Source: an uncultured cyanobacterium
Lineage (GTDB): Bacteria > Cyanobacteriota > Cyanobacteriia > Cyanobacteriales > CAWCAG01
Reading direction: 5' to 3'
Length of the DNA: 64,000 nt
Assembly: GCA_963793425.1 (NCBI GenBank)
Contig: CAWCAG010000009.1
Location: forward strand, 288,001-352,000
Both the position numbers and the translations under genes were made by a program. Shown here in pieces: positions 3,656 through 59,388 of the stretch. A model generated the notes under the pieces. The model made no database searches. It saw only the letters and a list, made by a program, of their open reading frames with translations, and was not told the DNA's origin. Position 1 is the stretch's first letter; the number at the start of each line of letters is the position of its first letter.

Positions 3656-5293
3656 ATGAAAGTTTTACTTCTTTATCCTTTATTTCCCAAAAGTTTCTGG
3701 TCTTTTGAAAAAACCATAGGTTTGCTTGGACATAAAGCGATGATTCCTCCTTTAGGATTAATAACCATAGCGGCTATCCTGCCTCAAGAATGGGAATATA
3801 GGTTAGTTGACCGTAACGTGGGGGATATCACTGAAGCTGATTGGGAATGGTGTGATTTAGTCATTCTTTCAGCAATGATTGTGCAAAAAGAAGACTTATT
3901 AAATCAAGTTAAAGAAGCAAAAAGAAGAAATAAGAAAGTAGCAGCCGGGGGACCTTATGTTACGGCTTTATCAGAGGAAGTCAAAGCAGTTGGGACAGAT
4001 TATCTCATTTTGGACGAAGGGGAAATTACCATACCCCTATTTGTTGAAGCCCTAGCTAGGGGAGAAACTTCAGGAACATTTAGTGCCGAAGGAGTAAAAC
4101 CTGATGTTGGTATCACTCCGATTCCTCGCTTTGAACTGTTGGATTTTGATGCCTATGCAGAAATGGCAGTACAGTTTTCTAGGGGTTGCCCTTTTCAGTG
4201 TGAATTTTGCGATATCATTGTTCTCTACGGCCGCAAACCCCGCACCAAAACACCAAAACAGCTAATTGCTGAACTAGAAAGACTCTACGAACTAGGTTGG
4301 CGGCGTAGCATTTTTATGGTGGATGATAACTTCATCGGCAATAAACGCAACGTTAAACTATTGCTGAGGGAGTTGCAACCTTGGATGGAAGAGCGTGGCT
4401 ATCCCTTTTCTATTAGTACAGAAGCCTCTGTAGACTTAGCCAACGATCAAGAATTGATGGATCTTATGACTGCTTGTGGTTTTGGGGCAGTTTTCTTGGG
4501 TATTGAAACTCCCGACGAAGGAAGTTTAGCAATCACTCAGAAATTTCAGAATACGAGAGATCCTCTCAGCGAATCCGTAGAGAAAATTGTCAAATCTGGT
4601 TTGCGAGTTATGGCTGGATTTATTATTGGCTTTGATGGGGAAAAAGCTGGGGCAGGGGAGCGCATTGTTGAATTTGTGGAAAAAACCACCATCCCCACTG
4701 GGGTTTTCAGTATGTTACAAGCCTTGCCTGATACTGCCCTGTGGCATCGCCTCAAAAAAGAAGGTAGGCTGCAAGAAGAGTCAGCCAATATTAACCAAAC
4801 AACCTTAATGAACTTTGTTCCTACCCGCCCTATTGAAGATATTGCCAAGGAATATGTACAAGCATTTTGGGATTTATACGAACCAAAAAACTTTTTAGAG
4901 CGGACTTATCGCCACTACCGCATTTTAGGAGAAGCCCCTTGCCATAAGCAACGTCAGCTCAAAAAGAAGGATAGTACCAAGATTTCTAAGGGGAAAAAGC
5001 AGTCCACAGCGAAGCTACTCAAAGCTATGCTGATTATCTTTTGGCAACAGGGAGTGGTACGGGATACCCGTTGGAAGTTTTGGCCTTATCTGTTTAGTAT
5101 GTGGAAGCATAATCGTGGAGGCATAGGCAGTTATCTAAGTGTTTGCGCCCAGATTGAACATTTTGTTGAGTATCGTCAAGAGGTAAAAGAACAAATTGAA
5201 TCCCAATTAGCAGCGTTTTTAGCCGAAGAAGAGAAATTAAAAATTAAGGTGGTTGAAAAAGAAAAAGAAGAAAGCCTTAAGGCGATCGCTTGA
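3656..5293 (+). CDS. B12-binding radical SAM protein (DUF4070 C-terminus)
   Basis: N-terminal cobalamin-binding region (PPLGL, GGPY), CPFQCEFC radical SAM motif, VDDNFIGN. Confidence 0.9.
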   Translation: MKVLLLYPLFPKSFWSFEKTIGLLGHKAMIPPLGLITIAAILPQEWEYRLVDRNVGDITEADWEWCDLVILSAMIVQKEDLLNQVKEAKRRNKKVAAGGPYVTALSEEVKAVGTDYLILDEGEITIPLFVEALARGETSGTFSAEGVKPDVGITPIPRFELLDFDAYAEMAVQFSRGCPFQCEFCDIIVLYGRKPRTKTPKQLIAELERLYELGWRRSIFMVDDNFIGNKRNVKLLLRELQPWMEERGYPFSISTEASVDLANDQELMDLMTACGFGAVFLGIETPDEGSLAITQKFQNTRDPLSESVEKIVKSGLRVMAGFIIGFDGEKAGAGERIVEFVEKTTIPTGVFSMLQALPDTALWHRLKKEGRLQEESANINQTTLMNFVPTRPIEDIAKEYVQAFWDLYEPKNFLERTYRHYRILGEAPCHKQRQLKKKDSTKISKGKKQSTAKLLKAMLIIFWQQGVVRDTRWKFWPYLFSMWKHNRGGIGSYLSVCAQIEHFVEYRQEVKEQIESQLAAFLAEEEKLKIKVVEKEKEESLKAIA

Positions 5294-5423
5294 TTAAATA
5301 ATGCTAATGGCTAGTGGCTAGTAGCTAGTGGCTAATTGTTTGACTTATTCATCTTCCTGACCCATAAAATTGTTAGGGAGATGTTTTGTTAGAATCGTAC
5401 TGAGTAATTTGGTAAGTTTAGCC

Positions 5424-6092
5424 ATGAAAGAGGGCAATGCAGAAAAAATGAACTTAAAAGAAGTTCATCGGCTGTTGGGATGGCAAAAACACTCAACAAT
5501 GGGCAAATATGAAGATATACTTTCCTTGGAACCATTAACGGAATTTGAACAAGGGGAATTAACCCAGATTGCCAGAGATTTTGAGCGTTACTTAAATGCA
5601 GATAAAGTCTCAGAAGGACTCATTAAAGCCCTAACCACCTTTCCTCTGCTGCGATTAGCTGGATTCTATCGTGTTCCCGTAGAGTTGAAACTTGAAGAAG
5701 CAATTGCGTGTATTGAAGTTGAAGATGAAGAGACAATTATCACAGGACGCTTTGATATTTTAGCAATTAATCCGAACCAAATCCCCGATGAACAAGTCTT
5801 TTGGATGCTTATTATCGAAGCCAAGAATAGTTCTATTGAGCTTAGGGCCGGGTTATCTCAACTTTTAGTCTATACCTATAGTAGCTTGAAGTTTCAATCT
5901 GAAACTTGGGGAATGCTAACTAACGGCATTAATTATCAATTTGTTCATTGCCAAAGTGGTACATATCCTCTGTATCAACTTTTCCCTCCCCTACATTTAT
6001 TTGAGGGCGATCGCGCGGTGCAAATTCTTCAAAGCCTTAAAGCAATTTGTCAGTTACAAAAACCCCTAACTAATGCCATACTTGCTTCCTGA
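5424..6092 (+). CDS. Type I restriction enzyme R N-terminal-like (PD-(D/E)XK) protein
   Basis: GRFDILA...IIEAK...QLLVY...WGMLTNG motif pattern typical of this stand-alone cyanobacterial family; start uncertain. Confidence 0.75.
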   Translation: MKEGNAEKMNLKEVHRLLGWQKHSTMGKYEDILSLEPLTEFEQGELTQIARDFERYLNADKVSEGLIKALTTFPLLRLAGFYRVPVELKLEEAIACIEVEDEETIITGRFDILAINPNQIPDEQVFWMLIIEAKNSSIELRAGLSQLLVYTYSSLKFQSETWGMLTNGINYQFVHCQSGTYPLYQLFPPLHLFEGDRAVQILQSLKAICQLQKPLTNAILAS

Positions 6093-6254
6093 AAGTGAAA
6101 CAGTATTATTAGCCCATACTTCAGTTTTTGGCATCCTCTTTAAGGATAAATAGACAGTTTCTCACAAGTTAATTTACAATCACTAGAGACAGATGTACTA
6201 GGACAAATCATTTAATTAAGCTAACGAAGTATAGTTAAATGCCTTGAACCTATT

Positions 6255-7769
6255 ATGATCTCTTTACCTGGAAAACCAGCCTCTTTTTGGATTGATTCTA
6301 CATTAGAAACTAATTATCCCACTTTAATTAATGATGTTAGCGTTGATGTCGCTATTGTGGGAGGGGGAATTGCTGGTATAACCGCAGCCATGCTGCTAAA
6401 ACAAGCTGGCAAAACCGTTGCAATTGTGGAAGCAGAGAGTATTGCCACAGGAGTTAGCGGACATACGACAGCGAAAGTTACTTCCTTGCATCAACTTATT
6501 TATGCTGACTTAATTAAAGAGTTTGGTGAAGATAAAGCCAGGATTTACGCCGAATCTAACCAAGCCGGGGTTGAACAAGTAGCTGACTTGGTTGCCCAAG
6601 AAGGGATTGATTGTGACTTTAGTCGCCAAAGTACTTATACCTTCGCTGATTCGGCTAAGCATCTTGACAAAATTGAAGCTGAATGTGAAGCTGCTTTGAA
6701 AGTTGGGCTTCCGGCTTCTTTTGTCAAAGAATCTTCCTTGCCTTTTGATATTGTCGGGGCTGTTAAAGTAGACAATCAAGCCCAGTTTCATGTTCGCAAG
6801 TATCTACTGCATCTAGCTGATAAAATTGCTGGTGATGGTAGTTATATTTTTGAGAATTCTAGAGTAGAAAAGGTTGAAGAAGGTGCGCCTTGTGAGGTAA
6901 TGACTAGCCAAGGGAAGGTAAAAGCCCAAGATGTTCTCGTTACAACTAATTTGCCGATTCTCGATCAAGGACTTTTCTTTGCTAAATCCTATCCTAAACG
7001 TTCTTATATTATTGGTGCAGCAATTGACCCAGAGAAAGCACCAGAAGGAATGTTTATTGGCGTAGGGGATAACTACCACTCTATTCGCACTACCCCTTAC
7101 CAAGGAGGTAAACTACTCCTTATTGGTGGCGAAGGACATAAAGTCGGGGCTATTTCTAATACCGAAGAAAAATACCTTGCTTTAGAAGAATATGGACGTT
7201 CTCACTTTGGTATTGACAAATTTGACTATCGTTGGTCTAGTCAGGATATGGTTTCTTTTGATAAGTTACCTTATATTGGCAAACTGACCCCAGCTAACAA
7301 ACATATCTACGTTGCCACAGGGTTTAGTCTTTGGGGCATGAGTAAAGGTACAATGGCAGGAATGTTGCTGAAAGATTTGGTTTTAGGACAAGAAAATTCT
7401 TGGGCTGATCTTTATGAAGCTACCCGCGCAACTCCTTTTGTAACCAAAGAGTCTTTGAAAAACAATGCTGAGGTAGGATTAAATTGGATTGGCGATCGCC
7501 TAAAAGCCCTGAAAAATCCTTCCTTAGCTGATGTGGGTGTTGGAGAAGGTAAAATCGTTCTTGTAGACAAAGAACCTACAGCAGTTTATAAAGATGAACA
7601 AGGGGAAATCCATGCAGTTTCTCCTGTTTGTACTCATTTAGCTTGCATTGTTAACTGGAATAGTGCCGAAAAGAGTTGGGATTGTCCTTGTCATGGTGCG
7701 CGTTTTAGTTGCGAAGGTAAAGTGCTTCAAGGGCCAGCAGTTACAGATTTAGAAAAGAAAGTTATTTAG
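6255..7769 (+). CDS. FAD-dependent oxidoreductase with C-terminal Rieske 2Fe-2S domain
   Basis: GGGIAG FAD-binding motif; CTHLAC and WDCPCHG Rieske motifs. Confidence 0.92.
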   Translation: MISLPGKPASFWIDSTLETNYPTLINDVSVDVAIVGGGIAGITAAMLLKQAGKTVAIVEAESIATGVSGHTTAKVTSLHQLIYADLIKEFGEDKARIYAESNQAGVEQVADLVAQEGIDCDFSRQSTYTFADSAKHLDKIEAECEAALKVGLPASFVKESSLPFDIVGAVKVDNQAQFHVRKYLLHLADKIAGDGSYIFENSRVEKVEEGAPCEVMTSQGKVKAQDVLVTTNLPILDQGLFFAKSYPKRSYIIGAAIDPEKAPEGMFIGVGDNYHSIRTTPYQGGKLLLIGGEGHKVGAISNTEEKYLALEEYGRSHFGIDKFDYRWSSQDMVSFDKLPYIGKLTPANKHIYVATGFSLWGMSKGTMAGMLLKDLVLGQENSWADLYEATRATPFVTKESLKNNAEVGLNWIGDRLKALKNPSLADVGVGEGKIVLVDKEPTAVYKDEQGEIHAVSPVCTHLACIVNWNSAEKSWDCPCHGARFSCEGKVLQGPAVTDLEKKVI

Positions 7770-7805
7770 GTTAATTACCACTGAATTCAGCATAATAAAA
7801 TAATT

Positions 7806-7855
7806 ACCAACATTGCTACTTTAAAACATCAAAAAGCTAGTAATGTTGGTTTTTT
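7806..7855 (+). terminator. Probable intrinsic terminator
   Basis: accaacattgcta...tagtaatgttggt inverted repeat followed by a T run, downstream of the oxidoreductase. Confidence 0.55.
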
Positions 7856-8072
7856 AATAGAAGGCTTGATTTATTTCAGTAGATAGTTGGTCATATCAAG
7901 TAATTAAAACCAACGAAATTTCCCTTCTTTCAAATTATCAAGCAACTCTTACGTAAATATTCTTACATTTATTTTTTTAATGAAGTTGCTTTATTGCTAT
8001 TTACTTTGTGGGGGATATAACCATAACATAATTATGAGGCAAGTGAAAGCAAAAATTTATACAAAAAAAATA

Positions 8073-8960
8073 ATGAGACTACTTAGAAAAACTGTACTCA
8101 ACAAAATTACCCTCGCCACTACTGCTGGCACTTTTTTCTGTATTGGGGCAATAGCTAATTCTGCTGAGGCGGCTAGTTTCAACTTTTCTTACACTTTTCA
8201 GAATAAGGAGGATGTTCTCAGTGGGATCTTAGAAGGGGAAGTTCAAGCAGATAATGATACAGTTATCGTTTCTGAGATCACTATGCCTAGCTTAAATGGT
8301 GATTTAGGCCCCGACTTACCTTTCGTAGATTCTATAGTTGAAATTGTTTCAACACTTGATCTACCTACCTTAATTAGATTACTCAGTTCAGACTCACCTT
8401 CTTTTGGATCTCTAGTTGACCTTACAGCAGCGCCTTTAGGAAATCCAAAGGTTAGCTTCAGTGGTCAGGTTATGGATATTATTACCTGTTCCCTTCCAGA
8501 GTGTGATGACGGCTTTGTGTTTGAAAGTGGCGGCTTAATTGGTGCGCCTTTATTCAGTAGCAGTCCATCTTACGGTAATAGTCCTGCTGAAACCTACGAT
8601 CCAAGCAGATGGCAGCTTACTGCTAACACACCAACTCCAACTCCGACTCCAACTCCAACTCCAACTCCAACTCCAACTCCAACTCCAACTCCAACCCCGA
8701 CTCCAACTCCAACTCCAACTCCAACCCCGACTCCAACTCCAACTCCAACCCCGACTCCAACTCCAACTCCAACCCCGACTCCAACTCCAACTCCAACCCC
8801 GACTCCAACTCCGACTCCAACACCAACACCAACACCAACACCAACACCAACACCTGAACCAACTTCCGTACCTGAACCAGCTTCAATACTAAGTCTTCTG
8901 GCTATGGGTACTTTAGGTGTTGCTTCTAAGTTGAAGGGCAGCAAAAAGAAAAAGCCTTAA
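8073..8960 (+). CDS. PEP-CTERM exosortase-target surface protein with Pro-Thr linker
   Basis: Signal peptide ending AEAAS, (PT)n tract, VPEP + transmembrane helix + basic tail; start uncertain. Confidence 0.9.
8628..8856 (+). repeat. Hexamer tandem repeat (ccaact and variants), about 38 units, encoding (PT)n
   Basis: Directly visible. Confidence 0.95.
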
Positions 8961-9069
8961 TTATTTAGATACTTAGCGGGCAAACATCAGGATGTATATT
9001 TCATTGCGTTGCAAAACTCTTGGGCTGCCTCCAACCGAGAAGTTTGCCCCATCAAAACACAACGGGTAA

Positions 9070-9700
9070 TTGACATCCTCCCCGACCTATTCGCGTAGCG
9101 TTGCCGCAGGCTAAGGTACGGGGATTCCCTATCTACCCAAACAACGACAGTTGCACGGGTTCTAGTTGGGTTGACGTTTCACAGGTTGCTGCTACAGTTG
9201 TAGTATAGCTGCCTACCTCCACGTCCGTTTCTTGCTCCGCGTTCCCTTGGGTCTTTCGGCGGCGCGGGTTCGGTGCGCTTTAGAGTCTCAGGGTGTCCCC
9301 CCGCGACTAAGATATTTACAGCAGCATTTACAGAAGGTCGCCTATCTTAGCTATGTATACTTTGTTTCCCTTGAGTCGGAATCCTGATTTGGTGAAGCTA
9401 GCAGCTTGCTTATTGCTTCGCTTCTTAAACCTGGGAGGCTTGATCTTGGTTCCCTTTCTTTTGCCTTGCAGGGAGTTAAAAAAGTTCTTATATGCTGTAG
9501 AAAGGTTTTTTAATGACTGCTGTAACGAGACTGCTGAGACTTGGTTTAGCCATTTCCTTTCTTCTGTCTTTTTTGTTTGGGTTAATCGTTTACATAAACT
9601 GTTGTAGCTTAAGGCTTTTCTACTACTTTTGCACAAAGCAACTGCATCGTTCCAAACTACACGAGTACAGCCAAACAGTTGAGCAAGTTTTTGTGTTTGG
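9070..9700 (-). mobile_element. Deleted IS200/IS605 (tnpB) remnant retaining right end, omegaRNA region and N-terminal TnpB fragment
   Basis: Right end ttgacatcctcccc and hairpin match 32515. Translation QLFGCTRVVWNDA...KVYIAKIGD is joined at about 9333 to NAAVNILVAGGHPET; RuvC core and left end are missing. Confidence 0.9.
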
Positions 9701-51465: not shown

Positions 51466-51948
51466 CTAAACCTCTGCGCCGGATTTTGGCTCTGCACCAG
51501 CCCCAACTACAGCATCTCTGAGGACAGTAATTTGTTGCTGAAACTCCATTGCTTCAATCTGAGATAGAACTTGATTGACACTACCACTAGGCTTATAATC
51601 ATCCGGTACAGGAACAATTGTTCCTGCATCCATTCCCTGTGCCAAACGATACCAGAAGTATAATTTAGTGTTTTCGCTTAAGGAACCATACTCACGGGAA
51701 ATAAGAGTATCTTGCCCTTCAATAATCTTACGTTGTGCATCCAGTTGTTCTTCAAAAGACAACTCTTTAACTTGATCAAACAATCCTTCAGCAATTTTGT
51801 CTCCGGCTGCCCCAGGTGCGGCGGGGGTTACGGATGTTCCCATCTTCTTGTAAACATACCAAAGAAGAGCTAATTTTTCATCTGTAGATAGGTTACTATA
51901 GCTGCTTAATACGCCATCAACACTTTGTTCTGAACTAGCTGTACCCAT
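51466..51948 (-). CDS. Helical carotenoid protein (orange carotenoid protein N-terminal domain homologue)
   Basis: DEKLALLW, TPAAPG, SREYGSLSENTKLYFWYRLAQGM, FQQQITVLR. Confidence 0.9.
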   Translation of the reverse strand: MGTASSEQSVDGVLSSYSNLSTDEKLALLWYVYKKMGTSVTPAAPGAAGDKIAEGLFDQVKELSFEEQLDAQRKIIEGQDTLISREYGSLSENTKLYFWYRLAQGMDAGTIVPVPDDYKPSGSVNQVLSQIEAMEFQQQITVLRDAVVGAGAEPKSGAEV

Positions 51949-52170: not shown

Positions 52171-52581
52171 TTATTGTAGACCTAATAATTCCTGTGGTGA
52201 TGCCAGTAACTTAATCTTAATCGTCGTAATTTGCTGATCTGAATTTAAACAGAAATGCCAAGCGACATTAACGCTAAACAAAGGAGTTTTAACCTTTCCT
52301 GTCACCTTAATCGTTTCTAAATCATCTTCATTTAACTCGTATATTCCTTGTTGTGGCAATAACTTCATCCCCTTAGCTTCCTTGCTTAAATAAGATGCGA
52401 TCGCCTCCTTCCCAAGGATAGGTTTTTCAAAGGGTGCTAATAATTCTCCTTCTTCAGCAAATAAAGCGGCAGTTTCAATAAATTTTCCGTGGTTAATGGT
52501 GACAAAGTAGTTGATAATAACTGGCTCTTCTATATTTTCAATTGTGATAAAATCTTCTGTTTGGGTTTCGATAGAACTCAT
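52171..52581 (-). CDS. OCP C-terminal domain homologue (CTDH, NTF2-like)
   Basis: YF..IN..F..TAALF..G.L.APFE.PI.G.EAI..YL..EA; GKVKTPLFSVNVAW; LLASPQELL. Confidence 0.85.
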   Translation of the reverse strand: MSSIETQTEDFITIENIEEPVIINYFVTINHGKFIETAALFAEEGELLAPFEKPILGKEAIASYLSKEAKGMKLLPQQGIYELNEDDLETIKVTGKVKTPLFSVNVAWHFCLNSDQQITTIKIKLLASPQELLGLQ

Positions 52582-52685
52582 ATAACTAATAGTTTTAGTT
52601 TCTTTAGTTATAAATTAAATTGGGTGAAATCGCTTCAAACTTTGACCAAAGATATGACAATAGAGGTACAGATAATTATCGTGAA

Positions 52686-53186
52686 ATGACAGATCCACTA
52701 TCTCTATCAGCAGCAGCGATCGCAGCTTTAGCATTTACCAAAATGCTGGAGAAAACAGTAGAAAAGTTCACAGAAGGCGCACTTTCTAAGATGGATGAAC
52801 TACGTCAAAAGATTTGGCAGAAGTTGCGAGGTAATCCTAAAGCAGAAAAAGCTCTTACGGCAGTAGAAGAGGGTAATAAAGAAGAAATTCAGCGACTAGC
52901 TGTATATTTGCAAGATGCTATGGAAGATGATCCGCAATTTGCCAGTGAAGTTCAAGTAATGGCGCAAGAAATTAATGCAGGTAAGCTACAAGATAACAGC
53001 ATAATGAATCAGAATAACTACGACAATAGTACTGGTTATCAAACTAAAAATGAAGGAGGAACCAACTTTGTTGGTGGAAATCACTATCACGGCAATCCTC
53101 CTCTTGAAGAGTGCAAACTAAAAATGAAGGAGGAACCAACTTTGTTGGTGGAAATCACTATCACGGCAATCCTCCCTCTTGACTAG
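52686..53186 (+). CDS. Bell-like small helical effector with C-terminal amyloid-like signalling motif
   Basis: MTDPLSLSAAAIAALAFTK amphipathic start, helical core, tail MNQNNYDNSTGYQTKNEGGTNFVGGNHYHG. It would end at TGA 53105-53107 if one C were present as in the repeat copy. Confidence 0.7.
   Translation: MTDPLSLSAAAIAALAFTKMLEKTVEKFTEGALSKMDELRQKIWQKLRGNPKAEKALTAVEEGNKEEIQRLAVYLQDAMEDDPQFASEVQVMAQEINAGKLQDNSIMNQNNYDNSTGYQTKNEGGTNFVGGNHYHGNPPLEECKLKMKEEPTLLVEITITAILPLD
53040..53182 (+). repeat. Near-perfect direct repeat, 68 and 69 bp, with a 6-bp spacer
   Basis: caaactaaaaatgaaggaggaacc...ggcaatcctc(c)ctcttga at 53040-53107 and 53114-53182; copies differ by one C. Confidence 0.95.
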
Positions 53187-54122
53187 AGTCGCCTGAGTCG
53201 GAACGGGCAGAGTTAAATCCACAGAGAAAGAATAGGCGAGGGAAAACTTTAAAAGCTAACCTACTCAAGATTATCAAAGAGCAAGTAGAGACATGGCAAG
53301 AGGAAGCTTTACGTAATCGGGTTTATGTTGTCCCAGATAAAGATAAAAACCAAAGCCAAGTTGCACCTACTCTAATTCTTGAGGTTAAATCTGGTTCTAA
53401 ACCAAAAGAAACTCTACCGAAAAGTACTCATATCATTGATGTATTTCAGAGAAAAGGAGTTAATGGCAGGTTGCTTATTTTAGGTGAACCTGGGGCAGGT
53501 AAGACTACTATGCTATTTGAGTTAGCCAAAGTATTAGTGCAACGTGTAGAAACAAACTCAAACCATTGAAGCTTTGGGGTGGTCATGGAGTAGGGTTGTT
53601 GCTCATCTATTCGGTATTTTTATTGGAGGAGCAGTTCTTTGGCTAGCTGGAGGTTACTTTCTAGGAATCATGGAAGGATTAATTTTTGGATTTGTCTCAA
53701 TGGTCATTGCCGCAATCATTATTGGTTTGGGTGAAGATAGAATTGTGACAACTATAAAGGCAAATCAAGGTATCTGGCAGTCTCTGAGAAATGGAATTTT
53801 CTTTGCTTCGATTGGAGTGTTAGGAATAGGACTATTTGCTTTTTTGACAGATGTACCTATCTTTAACGCAGCAGTTATTGGACTTATTTTCGGCTTGTTT
53901 CAGGGATTTCCAGGCTGTCTCCAACACTTTATTCTCCGTCTCATCCTCTACTCCAACAACTACATCCCCTGGAACTACGCCCGCTTCCTCGACTACGCAG
54001 CAGATCGCATCTTCCTCCAAAAAGTAGGAGGCGGCTACATCTTCATCCATCGAATGTTAATGGAACACTTTGCCCAGATGGAAATGAAGCAATTGAAAAT
54101 TAAAACTTATCTGAAGCAATAA
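53111..54122 (+). pseudogene. NACHT-transmembrane NLR-like gene, internally deleted
   Basis: GTG 53111 opens the motif copy; in-frame TGA at 53180; the same frame continues to LLILGEPGAGKTT (Walker A). The sequence then jumps at about 53558 to QTIEALGWSW and the C-terminal TM region ending PWNYARFLDYA..GGGYIFIHRML. Confidence 0.85.
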
Positions 54123-54199
54123 GCCTCTAACATAGCTTCTGTTTTACGAGGATAGGATGAGATAAGCTAAAAGAAAGATTGATAAAACAACGCCTGTTT

Positions 54200-54334
54200 A
54201 TGAGTATTGTTATTTCAGACGAAATCCTACAAGCTTCTCAACTTACACCCCAAGAATTTTGCCAGGAAATTGCTTTATATCTGTTCCAAACAAATCGCTT
54301 AACTTTAAGCTATGCTAGCGTACATCTCAATTAG
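54200..54334 (+). pseudogene. Truncated UPF0175-family protein
   Basis: MSIVISDEILQASQLTPQEFCQEIALYLFQTNRLTLSYAS then an early stop (44 aa). Confidence 0.65.
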
Positions 54335-54429
54335 TAACCGAGCTGCTTTCAGTTCCGTCGCGTACCACAGTTAGCAACTAGCAACTAGCAATTAGCAATT
54401 AGCAAAAACCAGACTATGATCATTTTGCC

Positions 54430-56493
54430 ATGAGTCAGACCAATAAAGATAATAGCGGAAACTGGCAAAACTCTCCCTTAACCCCTAAAGAATATCGGAA
54501 GCGTCAGGACTTACTTACCAAAGTTAAGAACTTTTGGGTTAAAGGAGTTTTAGAAAAATCTTTCCACAACCAAGCATTAATAGAGTTGGGCTTAGAGGAA
54601 AGCCCAGATACAGTGGCTTACCTTGGGAATATTATTTTAGAAACCGAGGATTTCTTACCCCGACCCCTCACTGAAGCTATTAAAGTTATCGATATCTTTA
54701 AGGGAAATAATACAGAGGAAAGTCTCTTAATTTTGGGGGAACCAGGTTTAGGAAAAACCACAACTTTGTTGCAACTCGCCCAAGATTTAATTAGCCGCGC
54801 TGAACAAGATATTAATCTACCAATTCCTGTAGTTTTTAATCTCTCTGCTTGGAACAACAAACCGCAGAAGATAGAAGACTGGTTAATAGAAGAATTGGCT
54901 ACTAAGTATGATGTTCCCCAAGCAATTAGCAAAACTTGGCTTAAGAAACAGCAAATACTACCTTTACTTGATGGTTTAGATGAAGTTGAGGTAGATTATC
55001 GAGATAATTGTATTGCTACATTGAACCAATTTAAGCAAGATTATGTTACAGGGTTAGTGGTGTGTAGTCGCAGTAAGGAATATGAAAATCTTTCTAATCG
55101 TTTAAACTTTCAAACTACAGTCTCTTTACAACCACTTACTTTAGAGAAAATTTGTGGTTATTTAGATAGTTTAGCTGCTGAATTAACAGGATTGAGAAAA
55201 TTAATCGCAGAGAATTTGCTATGGCAAAAATTAGCTCAATCTCCTGCAACTCTCAATATCATGGCTTTAGCTTATCAGGGAGTAAAGTTTGAAGACTTAC
55301 CACAATTTGAAGCTAGAGAAGATTATCTTGATAAGTTACTTGATGACTATGTTGAGCGAAGACTTAAGCATATTCATCCTGCCAAAATTACTCCCAAGTA
55401 TTCAGAATCTCAGACTAAAATTTGGCTAAGCTGGCTGGCAAAAAAGATGATGGTGCAGGAATCTAAAACTGTATTTTTAATTGAGATGATGCAGCCTCGG
55501 TGGTTGAAAACCAGGTGGCAAAAATTACTGTATAAAGCAGGAGTTAAAATAGCCATTGCTTTGGTTTTGTTTGGTACTGCCAAACTGAGTGGTTTGCTAA
55601 TTCCTACTTTTGAAAGTTTTGTCTCTATGACGATGAATTTTGTGGCAATTCTTTGTATTATCGTTCTGAAAAAGAAAGGTAATCTAATTTCCGACTTAAA
55701 AGGAGGATTACTCATCCAAGCAATTTTTTATGCAATTGGTTCTATGCCAATAATGTTGATATTAATATGTATCAATGCATTTTTTATCTTAACTGAAAAC
55801 CTCTCTAACGCAGAAATACAGCCATTAGCAACTTTCAAAATAGAACCCCAACAAATAAATAAAGAGTTGACTTTAGCTTTAATGGGTGGAATAGTCGTAG
55901 GACTGATTGTTTGCTTGGGGATGATAACTTCCTTCCGCCCAATTGTGATCGGAGTAAGTGCAGGTTTAAGTTTGATTAGTGGTTTAGCTGGCACACTGCT
56001 ATTTCTATTAGTATTCGGCCTCATTGGTAGGTTAGTTGCTTCCCACAATAAAATGAGCATCACACCTAATCAAAGCATTAAACAATCAGCCACTAACGCC
56101 ATCGTAGCCACTCTATTTTTAGGACTAGTTAGTAGTTTGGCTATGGGGTTAATATTTGGCCCTTTTTGGGAAGTTATCATGCCCCAAGAACTACCAAATC
56201 TCATGGCTCCAACCCCTAAATTAGAACTATTTTTGAGTAGGTTATCTGTATTTAGTGCTTTCATGTTAGCTATTTTCCTGAGCTTTGGTTCAATCGGAGG
56301 ATTGCTTTATGGAGGAATAACTTGCATACAGCATCTCATCCTTCGCCTTGTCCTCTACTGCAACAACTACATCCCTTGGAACTACGCCCGTTTCCTTGAC
56401 TATGCAGCGGATCGTCTCTTCTTACAAAAAGTCGGGGGAGGCTACATCTTCACCCATCGGATGTTGATGGAACACTTTACCCAAATTAAATAA
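54430..56493 (+). CDS. NACHT NTPase with multi-pass transmembrane C-terminus (NLR-like)
   Basis: GEPGLGKTT Walker A, LLDGLDEV Walker B, VVCSR, several TM helices, PWNYARFLDYA C-terminal motif. Confidence 0.92.
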   Translation: MSQTNKDNSGNWQNSPLTPKEYRKRQDLLTKVKNFWVKGVLEKSFHNQALIELGLEESPDTVAYLGNIILETEDFLPRPLTEAIKVIDIFKGNNTEESLLILGEPGLGKTTTLLQLAQDLISRAEQDINLPIPVVFNLSAWNNKPQKIEDWLIEELATKYDVPQAISKTWLKKQQILPLLDGLDEVEVDYRDNCIATLNQFKQDYVTGLVVCSRSKEYENLSNRLNFQTTVSLQPLTLEKICGYLDSLAAELTGLRKLIAENLLWQKLAQSPATLNIMALAYQGVKFEDLPQFEAREDYLDKLLDDYVERRLKHIHPAKITPKYSESQTKIWLSWLAKKMMVQESKTVFLIEMMQPRWLKTRWQKLLYKAGVKIAIALVLFGTAKLSGLLIPTFESFVSMTMNFVAILCIIVLKKKGNLISDLKGGLLIQAIFYAIGSMPIMLILICINAFFILTENLSNAEIQPLATFKIEPQQINKELTLALMGGIVVGLIVCLGMITSFRPIVIGVSAGLSLISGLAGTLLFLLVFGLIGRLVASHNKMSITPNQSIKQSATNAIVATLFLGLVSSLAMGLIFGPFWEVIMPQELPNLMAPTPKLELFLSRLSVFSAFMLAIFLSFGSIGGLLYGGITCIQHLILRLVLYCNNYIPWNYARFLDYAADRLFLQKVGGGYIFTHRMLMEHFTQIK

Positions 56494-56958: not shown

Positions 56959-59388
56959 TTAATTTTGCTTCTGTTTGATGACATCAATAGGTAACAGCAA
57001 AGTTTCTTCAATTTCTTGGCGAACTTCCGGGCTTACATAACAGTCTTGATGTAAAGATTGAGTTAATAGTTGGTTGGCATAATAATATTGTTTTAGTAAT
57101 TCTTTTTGTTGGTTGCTAAATTGCCAATCATGACCAATATTGCGATATTTAATTATGATTTTTCTTAAATCTTCTCTCCAAGTATTACCGTTAGCTTTCC
57201 ACCACTGCTTCAATTCTTTTTTACTTATCCTAGCAGGAAGCTGATTATTAAGTCTTCGTATTTCTCGATGTAGTTCACGATCAATTTCTTGCGACAGTTT
57301 GAGAATATATGAAAGTTTGAGACTTCGCGAGAAGTAGGAAGCTTGCGAAAAGCCAGGAGGTCGCGGGAAGTTTCTTGAGTCGAGGGTTAAGAAGAGGCTA
57401 ATATTGATATCTATGTTGAAAGAATTAGAAAGGGAGAAGTAAAGAAGTGCATCAAGGTCAACATTGATATCAGTACTAAAGTTTGTATCAATTTTAGACA
57501 ATAAAGATACATAAACAGGTACAGAAAGTGTGCGAGATAAGGAGCTAGGAAGTTTGAGAGCTTGGGATTGACATGAGAGATAGAGGTGAAAGTAAAGGCA
57601 TCGAGAAAGAGACAGTTTCATATCGGGATAGAAATCAATCTTCTCCTGAACTTTTGAAATATCTTCTTGCTTAAAAGTAATATTTTCAGCTACAGTTTTC
57701 TCATTTAACCGCTGTAAAAATCGTTGTATTTTCTCATCCTCCGCCAATAAATAATCAATCTTTTCCTTCATCAATAAAACTAACTTTTCTCCATTGGGAG
57801 ACATAGCCACCGCCAACAAAAACACTTCACGCCAGCGTTTATCAAAAATATGATTAACTAATTCTTCTAATGCTTGATCTGAAGATTGACGAACTTGAAT
57901 GATTTTCCTGGCAGTAAAGTATTCTTGAAAAGTTAAATGAGAGAAAGAATAAATATGTTTTGCCCTTTCTACTAACAAGCCATGTTGTGATTCAATAGAC
58001 TTTAAGACAACTTCACTATCAAGTTTTAAAGCTGCTTCATCAGTATTAGCCCCAGGTAAATTACGAATATATTCCCCAACATATCTTTCTACCTTGTCTT
58101 GTTTAAAGAAATATTCTCCCGGTGCAAAAGTATCCCAAGCAATCTTACTCAACAAGTCTTCTTTCCTTTGTATCCACAGTTTTTGATAAACTTCATCTCG
58201 TTGAATACCTCGCTTAGCATCCCATTTTTTCAACAGTGCATCCAAGCCCTCTTTATACAAACCAGCACGATTGCCAGGAAAATCACCAGACTCTTCAAAT
58301 ACCAAACAAAGTAAAGTAAGCAATAAAGGATTGGTAGCTAATTCTTGAATCGGTTCATCTTTTTCTAAGCGGCTTAAAAAGCTTTCTGGTTTAACTGGTT
58401 TATGCTGAAACCAATTAGTAGCAAAAATAGTTATTTGTTCCCAATCAAAATCAGCGATTTCTACTTCAGTAAATTGCTCAAAAGTGTATTCCCGTGCTGC
58501 AATACGACAAGTTAGTAAATATTGATTGCGAGAAAAGTTGGCGGAGAAATCGCGAATTTCCTTAATAACCCTTTTACTATCTTCTTGTAGTACTTCATCT
58601 AAACCATCAAAACAAATTAAAGCTTTACCTTGTTCTAAAAGCTGCTGTAAATTTTCTCTATCTTGTTTCTCAAGATACCTACCAATATAAGTTAATAATC
58701 TTGGTTGATTTTCTGCTTCGGCAAAGTCTTTGAGAGTAATAAAAAACGGTACTAAATCACCGTGAAATAAACCGCGATTGCATTGAATAACTAAATGCTT
58801 AAGGAAAGTTGTCTTACCAGCCCCTGGCTTACCTAAAATAAGTAGAGTTCGATATTTATTAACAGCTTCTTTACCTGGTATCTTTTCCTTTTCGATTTCT
58901 CCAAAATTGAAACGGTTAAAATTCTCGAAATCACAACTTTCAATCAACTCAGCAATTTCTTTACGCCTACGCCCGCTAATTTTTTCTAGGATATTAACTT
59001 TAGTATAAATATCATTCAAACCCACGGGCTGACTCATATCCAAAATTCGCATTGTGCCGCAGCGAGTTTCGATATCTTCTTTTACTTGTTCGCGAAACTT
59101 GTTAACTAAAAAAGAAATATCTATTGCTGATTTTTCTGACTCTAATTCTATCTGGTTAACAGCACTTTCTTCTAAACCTGTAACTTCTTGCCAATCTACA
59201 TCAAGTATTTCACAAATACGAACAAAAAGTTCACAATCTACTGCCTTGCCGTTAAAGAATTTAGAAATTGGCTGGCGAGTACAACCCAACCTTTCAGCAA
59301 TGGCTTTTTGAGTTATATTTTTACGTATTCTGGCATCTTTAACAACTTCAATATATGCTTCTAAAACTTGATGCGATCGCTTAGCCAT
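56959..59388 (-). CDS. XRE-HTH + NACHT NTPase with C-terminal helical domain
   Basis: ITQKAIAERLGCTRQPISKFFNG HTH; GKPGAGKTT; FDGLDEV; FSHLTFQEYF; YRNIGHDWQFS..YYYANQLL. Confidence 0.92.
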   Translation of the reverse strand: MAKRSHQVLEAYIEVVKDARIRKNITQKAIAERLGCTRQPISKFFNGKAVDCELFVRICEILDVDWQEVTGLEESAVNQIELESEKSAIDISFLVNKFREQVKEDIETRCGTMRILDMSQPVGLNDIYTKVNILEKISGRRRKEIAELIESCDFENFNRFNFGEIEKEKIPGKEAVNKYRTLLILGKPGAGKTTFLKHLVIQCNRGLFHGDLVPFFITLKDFAEAENQPRLLTYIGRYLEKQDRENLQQLLEQGKALICFDGLDEVLQEDSKRVIKEIRDFSANFSRNQYLLTCRIAAREYTFEQFTEVEIADFDWEQITIFATNWFQHKPVKPESFLSRLEKDEPIQELATNPLLLTLLCLVFEESGDFPGNRAGLYKEGLDALLKKWDAKRGIQRDEVYQKLWIQRKEDLLSKIAWDTFAPGEYFFKQDKVERYVGEYIRNLPGANTDEAALKLDSEVVLKSIESQHGLLVERAKHIYSFSHLTFQEYFTARKIIQVRQSSDQALEELVNHIFDKRWREVFLLAVAMSPNGEKLVLLMKEKIDYLLAEDEKIQRFLQRLNEKTVAENITFKQEDISKVQEKIDFYPDMKLSLSRCLYFHLYLSCQSQALKLPSSLSRTLSVPVYVSLLSKIDTNFSTDINVDLDALLYFSLSNSFNIDINISLFLTLDSRNFPRPPGFSQASYFSRSLKLSYILKLSQEIDRELHREIRRLNNQLPARISKKELKQWWKANGNTWREDLRKIIIKYRNIGHDWQFSNQQKELLKQYYYANQLLTQSLHQDCYVSPEVRQEIEETLLLPIDVIKQKQN

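Follow-up and report, generated by a model that had tools for sequence, protein, structure and literature searches.

An effector gene and two receptor genes lie one behind the other in a 64,000-nt window of DNA from an uncultured cyanobacterium of the order Cyanobacteriales (assembly GCA_963793425.1, contig CAWCAG010000009.1, positions 288,001 to 352,000; the window is this whole stretch, and positions are counted from its first letter). The effector is a small helical protein with an amyloid-type motif near its C-terminus. The receptor genes encode NACHT proteins with predicted transmembrane (TM) helices and are called NACHT-TM genes 1 and 2 (Table 1). The locus reads as a decayed copy of a Bell/BASS-like cell-death module, in which an effector is paired with NOD-like receptors (NLRs). 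Our main subject is the junction between the effector and gene 1, where an in-frame stop codon is followed by an RNA element, in the window and in related cyanobacteria.

Table 1. Features of the effector/NLR locus, in window coordinates (ORF, open reading frame; aa, amino acids)
Feature	Position	Strand	Remarks
Effector ORF as assembled, 166 aa	52686..53186	+	Start ATG 52686; alternative start TTG 52620
Two-part amyloid-type motif MNQNNYDNSTGYQ / TKNEGGTNFVGGNHYHGNPP, effector C-terminal	53004..53102	+	Conserved in homologues
74-nt segment: copy 1 of the 62-nt repeat plus 12-nt spacer	53040..53113	+	Missing in public contigs
Copy 2 of the 62-nt repeat; true effector 3' end (...GNPPS) if unduplicated	53114..53175	+	Repeat, contig joint
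Stop codon plus pseudoknot element	53180..53232	+	Covariance model R1, covariation, position statistic
5' remnant of NACHT-TM gene 1: linker, pre-NACHT region, Walker A	53183..53570	+	Ends at TGA 53568
3' remnant of NACHT-TM gene 1, 182-aa hydrophobic ORF in another frame	53574..54122	+	Membrane helices and conserved C-terminal block
51-aa UPF0175-family fragment between the two NACHT genes	54179..54334	+	Pfam PF03683
Intact NACHT-TM gene 2, 687 aa	54430..56493	+	13-aa half motif (54430-54468), NACHT, membrane helices, C-terminal block

The 3' end of the effector gene contains an exact 62-nt direct repeat (53040-53101 and 53114-53175, period 74 nt). As assembled, the ORF passes ...HYHG and runs on to TAG 53184-53186, with an out-of-frame tail of 27 aa that results from the 74-nt duplication. 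A first-pass annotation of this DNA had the effector ending in its two-part motif; the motif is indeed there, but the protein extends past it. The annotation also reported that the second half recurs after GTG 53111, in frame with a downstream Walker A. The copy and its frame are as described, but the reading is interrupted: 23 residues are followed by TGA 53180, and then by 128 open codons through the Walker A (GEPGAGKTT, at about 53483-53509) to the end of the 5' remnant. What recurs is an exact repeat of DNA, not a diverged motif. Contigs from all four public runs compared (X1-X4, one study, over 52850-53450) join 53039 to 53114, without the 74 nt, and show no other difference. The runs may be source samples of the genome assembly, so they do not count as four independent witnesses. 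That a contig goes straight through the 62-nt repeat suggests, from how assembly graphs behave, that the looped form is absent or rare in those reads. A public cluster representative (P0003, 162 aa) also ends in ...GNPPS, as the unduplicated DNA encodes. The 74-nt segment may have arisen in assembly, or by a tandem duplication that is rare or recent. With the segment removed, the effector has 140 aa from ATG 52686, stops at TGA 53180 and shares its frame with the 5' remnant of NACHT-TM gene 1.

The effector begins MTDPLSLSAAAIAALAFTK and has a helical Bell-like core (about residues 1-100) followed by a disordered Q/N/G-rich tail. A word-index protein search gave 433 candidates, of which 230 are homologues at E<=0.001; the 120 that were listed are cyanobacterial where named, about 134-154 aa long and typically about 139 aa. 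All 26 aligned homologues terminate within a few residues of the motif end. Their motif reads M-x-Q-x-N-x-D-N-x-x-G-[WY]-Q-T-K-x-E-G-G-T-x-[YF]-[IV]-G, and the family consensus at the N-terminus is MEPxTLTAxAIATLAFTK. An AlphaFold2 model from 45 sequences (mean pLDDT 67; core about 80, tail 102-139 below 50) places helices at residues 9-21, 30-47, 51-61, 66-81 and 83-98, that is, helix 1 and four more. According to one preprint, the Bell domain is helical, spans about 100 aa and precedes a motif of about 25 aa in which Q, N, G, V and I are abundant (10.1101/2020.01.06.895854); according to another, Bell/Bab domains have a conserved 'MEPIS' N-terminus and four helices that cup helix 1 (10.1101/2024.11.07.622273). 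The effector family has a predicted helical domain of that size, an 'MEPIS'-type start, four further helices and a conserved Q/N/G-rich C-terminal tail predicted to be unstructured. Judged by N-terminus, helix count in the model and motif composition, the effector is Bell-like. No Pfam family scored above threshold (sub-threshold DUF7607, 16.8 bits against a cut-off of 27, and NCAB1), a profile search of the PDB returned a designed repeat protein only, Foldseek against the PDB gave nothing at E<=0.001, and VIA-align against 48,161 chains gave generic helical matches throughout (best Z 4.7).

A search for longer homologues found four proteins, one of which is an effector-NLR fusion lacking the stop, with a degenerate P-loop (P0123, 428 aa). 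The public protein P0124 (1140 aa) has NB-ARC and TPR domains followed by a Bell-like domain and the motif at its C-terminus; it may be a run-on over two genes or a genuine fusion in reverse order.

In relatives, the same motif stands at the N-terminus of the neighbouring NLR. The Nostoc foliaceum locus (L058) has an NB-ARC gene starting MNQSNQDNAKGWQNKVEGG 13 nt past the effector stop, and the Nostoc parmelioides locus (L043) has an NLR that carries the motif behind a lead of about 50 aa. A third case, from a Symplocastrum torsivum metagenome-assembled genome (L039), is described below. The motif also occurs on other proteins: an alpha/beta-hydrolase (P0126) has a nearly exact copy of the window motif at its C-terminus, and a CHAT protein (P0125) combines the helical domain with the motif. 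Modular motifs common to effectors and NLR N-termini are the pattern described for BASS motifs (10.1101/2020.01.06.895854). We take this one to be a paired, modular signalling motif of BASS type, with a putative amyloid fold. The proposal of the first-pass annotation that this is an amyloid-signalling effector/NLR module fits both the homologues that end at the motif and the motif pairs in these three loci, and the co-occurrence that it predicted between effector motif and neighbouring NLR N-terminus is seen in the same three.

Elsewhere in the window's own genome, a classical effector/NLR gene pair (L004, contig G000:C1, about 16.5-17.3 kb, minus strand) has a different motif common to both proteins: the effector paralogue has the C-terminus ...GRDMYVINNPTGNLRLGG (stop TAG), and the NLR, some 40 nt downstream, starts MSQRNESHIGDLYVINNPEGELTF.

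NACHT-TM gene 2 encodes a clear NACHT protein (Pfam PF05729, 35.1 bits against a cut-off of 26.7). Its hydrophobic segments fall within residues 366-631, a stretch of about 270 aa with 7-9 predicted membrane helices; the membrane-spanning C-terminus proposed in the first-pass annotation is thus borne out by prediction in the window protein and conserved in relatives. The protein starts MSQTNKDNSGNWQ-NSPLTPKEY, and MSQTNKDNSGNWQ is identical to the first half of the effector motif at 7 of 13 positions (BLASTP E 0.002, single comparison), as that annotation had noted. For gene 1, the piece at 53183-53567 has sub-threshold P-loop matches only in Pfam and falls short as a NACHT domain on its own.

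The Symplocastrum locus has the intact arrangement. Its 139-aa effector is 73% identical to the window effector; TGA-CTAGAG comes next, and the effector frame continues from there into a NACHT protein of 591 aa that has membrane helices. A second NACHT-TM gene follows 3 nt after the first, and its product has the N-terminus MKQDNRDNSKNWQTTNTGGTNYVGEIHFHGNEQ-NSPLTQQEY. The two NACHT proteins score 53.3 and 40.5 bits (Pfam NACHT). Effector and both receptors lie in one frame (5001-9203 of the locus), and the second junction consists of a single stop, two codons and ATG. The N-terminus of the second receptor matches the window effector motif at 19 of 31 positions (E 1e-12) and holds the full motif; that of the window's gene 2 equals it minus 20 residues. 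The window's gene 1 matches the 591-aa protein only at residues 1-126 (61%) and 454-587 (47%), in two pieces that lie in different frames, and a 158-nt stretch of its 3' remnant is 83% identical to 56329-56486, within gene 2.

By this comparison, receptor 1 of the window has probably lost about 330 residues and is dead, and receptor 2 has probably lost the second half of its motif. In a genome of the same genus (G027), we found no effector match at E<=1e-10, and the gene that corresponds to the second NACHT is interrupted by a TAG and broken at its N-terminus; both points fit a reading of the half motifs as decay. The intact layout would then be one effector with two membrane-anchored NACHT receptors. 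The first-pass annotation had this layout right, and it is that of the Symplocastrum locus. Its further claim, that each NLR carries one half of the effector motif, fails on both sides: the half next to gene 1 comes from a duplication absent in the public contigs and is cut off by TGA from a dead NACHT gene, and the half on gene 2 is a 20-residue truncation of a full motif. The window's 'split motif' is a product of that duplication and of gene decay.

Relatives of the 687-aa protein (L151, L152, L153, L155-L176) have very diverse N-termini. In some, a short Q/G/V-rich motif of another kind is present (such as ...VQIGGVAG...LTQIQGGVGSINVFG), and others have long N-terminal parts that resemble, by eye, Ser/Thr kinase, nucleotide cyclase, CHAT or TIR domains.

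The first-pass annotation missed the in-frame stop and the RNA structure that link the effector to NLR 1. We surveyed this junction in 108 effector genes (101 unique), collected by tblastn; 30 loci come from 151 sampled genomes of the order, and 79 loci come from GenBank. In 58 of the 101 unique genes, the frame of the effector stays open for at least 90 aa past the stop; the other 43 have no such continuation. The continuation is an NLR, for example of NB-ARC+TPR or NACHT type (Pfam). Besides the Symplocastrum locus, Scytonema (L101, L103) and Fischerella (L046) provide examples of intact loci. The stop is TGA in 49 of the in-frame loci, TAG in 8 and TAA in 1 (21, 9 and 13 in the others). The base after it is C in 50 of 58 in-frame loci versus 3 of 43 others, and the next codon is CTN in 47 of 58. 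Start codons are scarce, with no ATG, GTG or TTG in the first 20 codons at 49 loci and none in the first 30 codons at 37. The downstream frames stay open for at least 500 aa, and all seven close pairs examined have a ratio of nonsynonymous to synonymous substitution rates (dN/dS) of 0.19-0.38, indicating purifying selection. Because selection acts on downstream ORFs that mostly have no start of their own, something must translate them. A conserved, selected in-frame ORF and a leaky UGA/CUN context are both properties of readthrough signals.

The sequence after the stop has a conserved structure. In the window, the stop (TGA 53180-53182) is followed by CTA, and a hairpin begins 8 nt past the stop (53191-53195 paired with 53204-53208). 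Loop bases 53199-53202 face 53218-53221 in an H-type pseudoknot, where only three of the four pairs form. A hairpin of at least 5 bp that starts exactly 8 nt after the stop is present in 39 of 58 in-frame loci versus 1 of 43 others; mononucleotide shuffles predict 2.2 of 58, and other in-frame places of the same ORFs have such a hairpin in 8.6% of cases (n=3826). The stems differ between loci by compensating changes (GCCCG/CGGGC, GUCCG/CGGAC, GUCAG/CUGAC, GUCGG/CCGAC, GCCUG/CAGGC and CCCAA/UUGGG). Four bases of the loop pair with a stretch 9 nt onward, forming an H-type pseudoknot with an A-rich third loop.

Covariation supports both helices. In 28 gapless sequences, helix 1 is paired at 99.3% and the pseudoknot helix at 85.7%; none of 500 shuffles did as well, and controls with a slid register gave 20-50%. 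A covariance model (R1) containing helix 1 only, with no pseudoknot helix, yielded an alignment of 54 hits, 26 of them outside the seed. There, helix 1 is paired at 97.7% and the pseudoknot helix at 84.9%, with slid controls at most 55%; the observed value was reached by 0 of 500 shuffles on three measures and 1 of 500 on two. Individual pairs vary in step: 13-38 is CG in 27 hits and UA in 23; 15-36 is CG in 27, GC in 11, UG in 10, AU in 3 and UA in 2; and 20-52 is GC in 26, CG in 10, GU in 6 and AU in 1. The first codon of the element is a stop in all 54 hits (45 TGA, 8 TAG, 1 TAA) and never a sense codon, the base after it (+4) is C in 53, and the next codon is CTN in 50 (CTA 25, CTG 22, CTC 3). 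A covariation-supported RNA structure about 8 nt downstream of the stop is a further property of readthrough signals.

R1 has one match in the window's own genome, at the junction itself (59.8 bits, E 7.5e-9). At E<=0.01 it has 36 matches in the sample of the order, spread over 29 of the 151 genomes, and it matches 10 of 151 genomes in a phylum-wide sample: the own genome, seven of the same order and two of other orders in the class. There is no match in the 106 genomes of 49 other genera of the phylum-wide sample. At all 29 loci read, the match starts at the stop of the upstream ORF, and the same frame is open downstream. The upstream ORFs include other Bell-like subfamilies, alpha/beta-hydrolases (L122, L146, L137) and a TIR_2 domain (L130), and the downstream ORFs are NB-ARC+TPR or NACHT proteins. 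The stop plus pseudoknot is thus independent of effector type. None of the 4227 Rfam families matches 52600-54500 at E<=1.

Some in-frame junctions look different. The own genome has a second, apparently intact in-frame system (L002, G000:C1, about 358.4-359.2 kb, minus strand), in which the effector paralogue ends ...GDANF and TGA-CTG follows. Past the stop, the effector frame carries on into a P-loop NLR (GLGGAGKSS) and lacks ATG, GTG and TTG over the first 75 codons. Its hairpin (CUGCG-GGGC-CGCAG) begins 4 nt past the stop, and R1 misses it. Six loci (L014, L017, L020, L023, L025 and L024) have TGA-CTG or TGA-CTT and an in-frame NLR of WxGR...GLGGxGKS type with no hairpin at +8 and a possible AGGG/CCCU stem further downstream; this subclass may carry a different signal. 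In the pairs L092/L093 and L109/L110, the proportion of synonymous differences (pS) is 0.54-0.55 in the NLR part versus 0.25-0.29 in the effector part, and this roughly twofold difference within the same pairs points to the junction as a place where effectors and receptors are swapped as modules.

We consider the best explanation to be a decaying effector/NLR module whose intact form would use stop readthrough (probability about 0.58). Programmed readthrough of the stop, giving a free effector and an effector-motif-NLR fusion, is in our estimate slightly better supported than an even chance. In the intact form, receptor 2 is wired classically, through its own full copy of the motif at the N-terminus. 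Receptor 1 has neither a motif nor a start of its own and lies in the effector frame behind the stop (usually UGA-CUN) and the pseudoknot. A fraction of ribosomes would read through the stop, yielding abundant free effector-motif protein and, rarely, the same protein fused to the NLR. Once the NLR part oligomerises, its identical motifs would be brought together and nucleate the amyloid fold, which would template the free effector, and the templated effector would damage the membrane. As receptor and effector motifs would come from the same DNA, they would always be identical, and translation would set their ratio. That filamentous and colonial cyanobacteria possess a dedicated recoding signal (a stop, CUN and an H-type pseudoknot 8 nt on) that makes two proteins from one effector-NLR gene is about an even bet.

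Several observations weigh against this explanation. Single-sequence folding of eight elements gave eight results no better than shuffles (z -0.29 to +0.71), and RNAalifold on an unselected MAFFT alignment of 55 post-stop sequences, in which loops of unequal length are misaligned, predicted no structure. The 28 seed rows were chosen for the hairpin and the 54 rows were fitted to helix 1, so the pairing of helix 1 is inflated; this bias does not extend to the pseudoknot helix or the position statistic. Related genomes in the counts are not independent. The hairpin at +8 is absent from 19 of the 58 in-frame loci, and the window's own element is a relic, with a dead downstream frame and one broken pseudoknot pair. 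GTG stands right after the stop in two loci (L080, L090) and CTG in 22 of the 54 elements, where initiation is possible. Fold searches gave no link from the effector to a solved HeLo, Bell or MLKL structure, and the readthrough itself is inferred from sequence. We know of no described readthrough-stimulating RNA structure in bacteria; the A1 readthrough of phage Q-beta in its bacterial host needs, to our knowledge, no RNA structure.

The start-like codons just mentioned are an argument for termination followed by reinitiation at or next to the following codon, by which the NLR would be a separate protein with neither effector nor motif. CTG is a weak bacterial start, and tight coupling or overlap of Bell and NLR genes is common, with 57% within 10 bp of each other (10.1101/2020.01.06.895854). 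However, the CTA and CTC codons that make up the other 28 CTN cases (25 and 3 of the 54 elements) are not start codons, the UGA bias and the C at +4 are features of weak termination rather than of initiation, and an NLR so made could not signal to the effector through a motif, whereas the NLRs here that are clearly separate carry their own copy. We regard reinitiation as unlikely. Slightly less likely again is a role of the structure at the level of RNA (processing, stability or attenuation), which would set a ratio of messages while the NLR is made from an internal or unconventional start. The structure is conserved and its single-sequence stability is unremarkable, both of which such a role would accommodate. 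It gives no evident reason for the fixed 8-nt spacing from a stop kept in 54 of 54 elements, or for a common frame that lacks start codons over 20-75 codons. An NLR that starts inside or after the P-loop would also be inactive, which does not agree with the purifying selection on the ORFs.

Two other readings have very little in their favour. In the model of the first-pass annotation, two NACHT receptors template different halves of the effector motif, and in the assembled sequence a copy of the second half does follow GTG 53111, and the NACHT protein at 54430 does begin with the first half. Against it stand the repeat copy missing in 4 of 4 public runs, the TGA that follows, the loss of about 330 residues from that gene, the whole motif on the counterpart of the second NACHT, and the absence of split wiring from all 108 related effector genes inspected; we give it hardly any credence. 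The same low weight goes to the idea that nonsense mutations produced the in-frame stops in genes that were once all-in-one, leaving dead NLRs downstream. This holds for the window copy, and the fusion P0123, stop-less and with a degenerate P-loop, is in line with it. Elsewhere, the stop keeps its position in dozens of genera, with TGA, TAG and TAA interchanging and sense codons never appearing; the frames behind it are open for at least 500 aa under the selection reported above, and the RNA structure behind it covaries.

Other routes were examined and rejected. Selenocysteine insertion does not suit the 9 of 54 elements with TAG or TAA, and the own genome has no tRNA-Sec; ARAGORN found no suppressor or Sec tRNA among its 50 tRNAs. 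Frameshifting by +1 or -1 was dismissed on the zero frame of the downstream ORF and the lack, by eye, of a slippery heptamer. TTGACT at the stop was considered as a -35 box, also by eye, and discarded on finding that the sole -10-like hexamer is about 29 nt off. A GAC/GUC mini-hairpin over the stop was discarded on finding the AGYC spacer unchanged where the stop is TAG.

Systems of this kind are known, and the locus itself is a decayed example. Bell/BASS gene pairs, as presented by Dyrka et al. (10.1101/2020.01.06.895854), likewise combine a helical effector of about 100 aa and a Q/N/G-rich motif of about 25-35 aa at its C-terminus, and the motif recurs where a neighbouring, collinear NB-ARC or NACHT protein begins; alpha/beta-hydrolase, TIR and CHAT proteins carry it too, and cyanobacteria are among the hosts. 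They differ in that in over half of the loci here the NLR lacks both a motif and a start and continues the effector frame past a stop and a pseudoknot, and in that their receptors have TPR or WD repeats whereas those of the window end in membrane helices. The Dyrka screen required the motif at an annotated NLR N-terminus, so loci with an in-frame stop would be missed. Bab/Agp of Escherichia coli, the sole experimentally tested bacterial case (10.1101/2024.11.07.622273), is similar in its small Bell-related effector, common amyloid motif of about 20 aa and adjacent genes, but its sensor is TPR-GreA/B-C-PIN rather than an NLR, the genes are separate and the motif family is BASS11.

More distant comparisons concern the parts. 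The fungus Podospora anserina has HET-S/NWD2, in which a pore-forming helical effector is activated by an NLR that templates its C-terminal prion-forming motif. There, too, the effector motif is longer than, or repeated relative to, that of the NLR; in contrast to the present system, it is fungal, has two separate genes and no recoding, and shows no sequence relation. The bNACHT/STAND antiphage proteins have the NACHT NTPase core and relatives with diverse N-terminal modules (kinase, cyclase, CHAT, TIR), but the C-terminus here is a polytopic membrane region with a conserved block of about 60 aa rather than a soluble repeat sensor. For readthrough, a 2026 review describes alphavirus UGA-CUA with a 3' stem-loop, Moloney murine leukemia virus (MoMLV) gag-pol UAG with an H-type pseudoknot at +12, and spacers of at least 8 nt that put the structure at the mRNA entry channel (PMC13517186). 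The cyanobacterial junction resembles these viral signals in its leaky UGA-C/CUA context, a first stem at +12 (8 nt past the stop), the in-frame ORF and, as proposed, a fixed proportion between two products that share their N-terminus. The viral signals act on eukaryotic ribosomes and are experimentally proven, whereas the element here is chromosomal, bacterial, about 31 nt long and deduced by comparison.

The stop-plus-pseudoknot junction is conserved and, as far as we know, undescribed. A full-text literature search, with most subscription journals, the published Dyrka version and bioRxiv supplements outside its scope, found nothing linking NLRs or BASS motifs to readthrough or in-frame stops; Table S2 of Dyrka may list some such loci. 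The terms 'stop codon', 'readthrough' and 'read-through' occur nowhere in the Dyrka preprint, the Bab/Agp preprint, two eLife papers on conflict systems or a 2025 paper on motif detection. If the readthrough explanation is correct, the junction would be a conserved example of chromosomal recoding in bacteria with a clear cis-element, and a third way of wiring NLRs to effectors, beside gene pairs and all-in-one fusions. It would account for the expression of cyanobacterial NLR genes that seem start-less or are annotated as fragments, and published screens for amyloid pairs by a motif at the annotated NLR N-terminus would miss a large class of systems. The design would be simple: identical motifs from one DNA, and a rare nucleator beside an abundant substrate. 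Covariance model R1 is a ready annotation marker for such split genes.

The remaining observations concern the neighbourhood. The UPF0175 fragment between the NACHT genes scores 30.9 bits against a Pfam cut-off of 27.9 (PF03683). About five units of a heptamer repeat (TAGCAAC/TAGCAAT) lie directly upstream of the start of NACHT-TM gene 2, at 54371-54410. Downstream, an 809-aa HTH_3 - NACHT - NCH2 protein (56959-59388, minus strand) is convergent with the locus, so that the two form a small NLR cluster. Upstream, a 160-aa protein (51466-51948, minus strand) has the N-terminal domain of the orange carotenoid protein (Carot_N, 198 bits). It adjoins a 136-aa ORF (52171-52581, minus strand) that has no Pfam match and that may be the matching homologue of the C-terminal domain of that protein.

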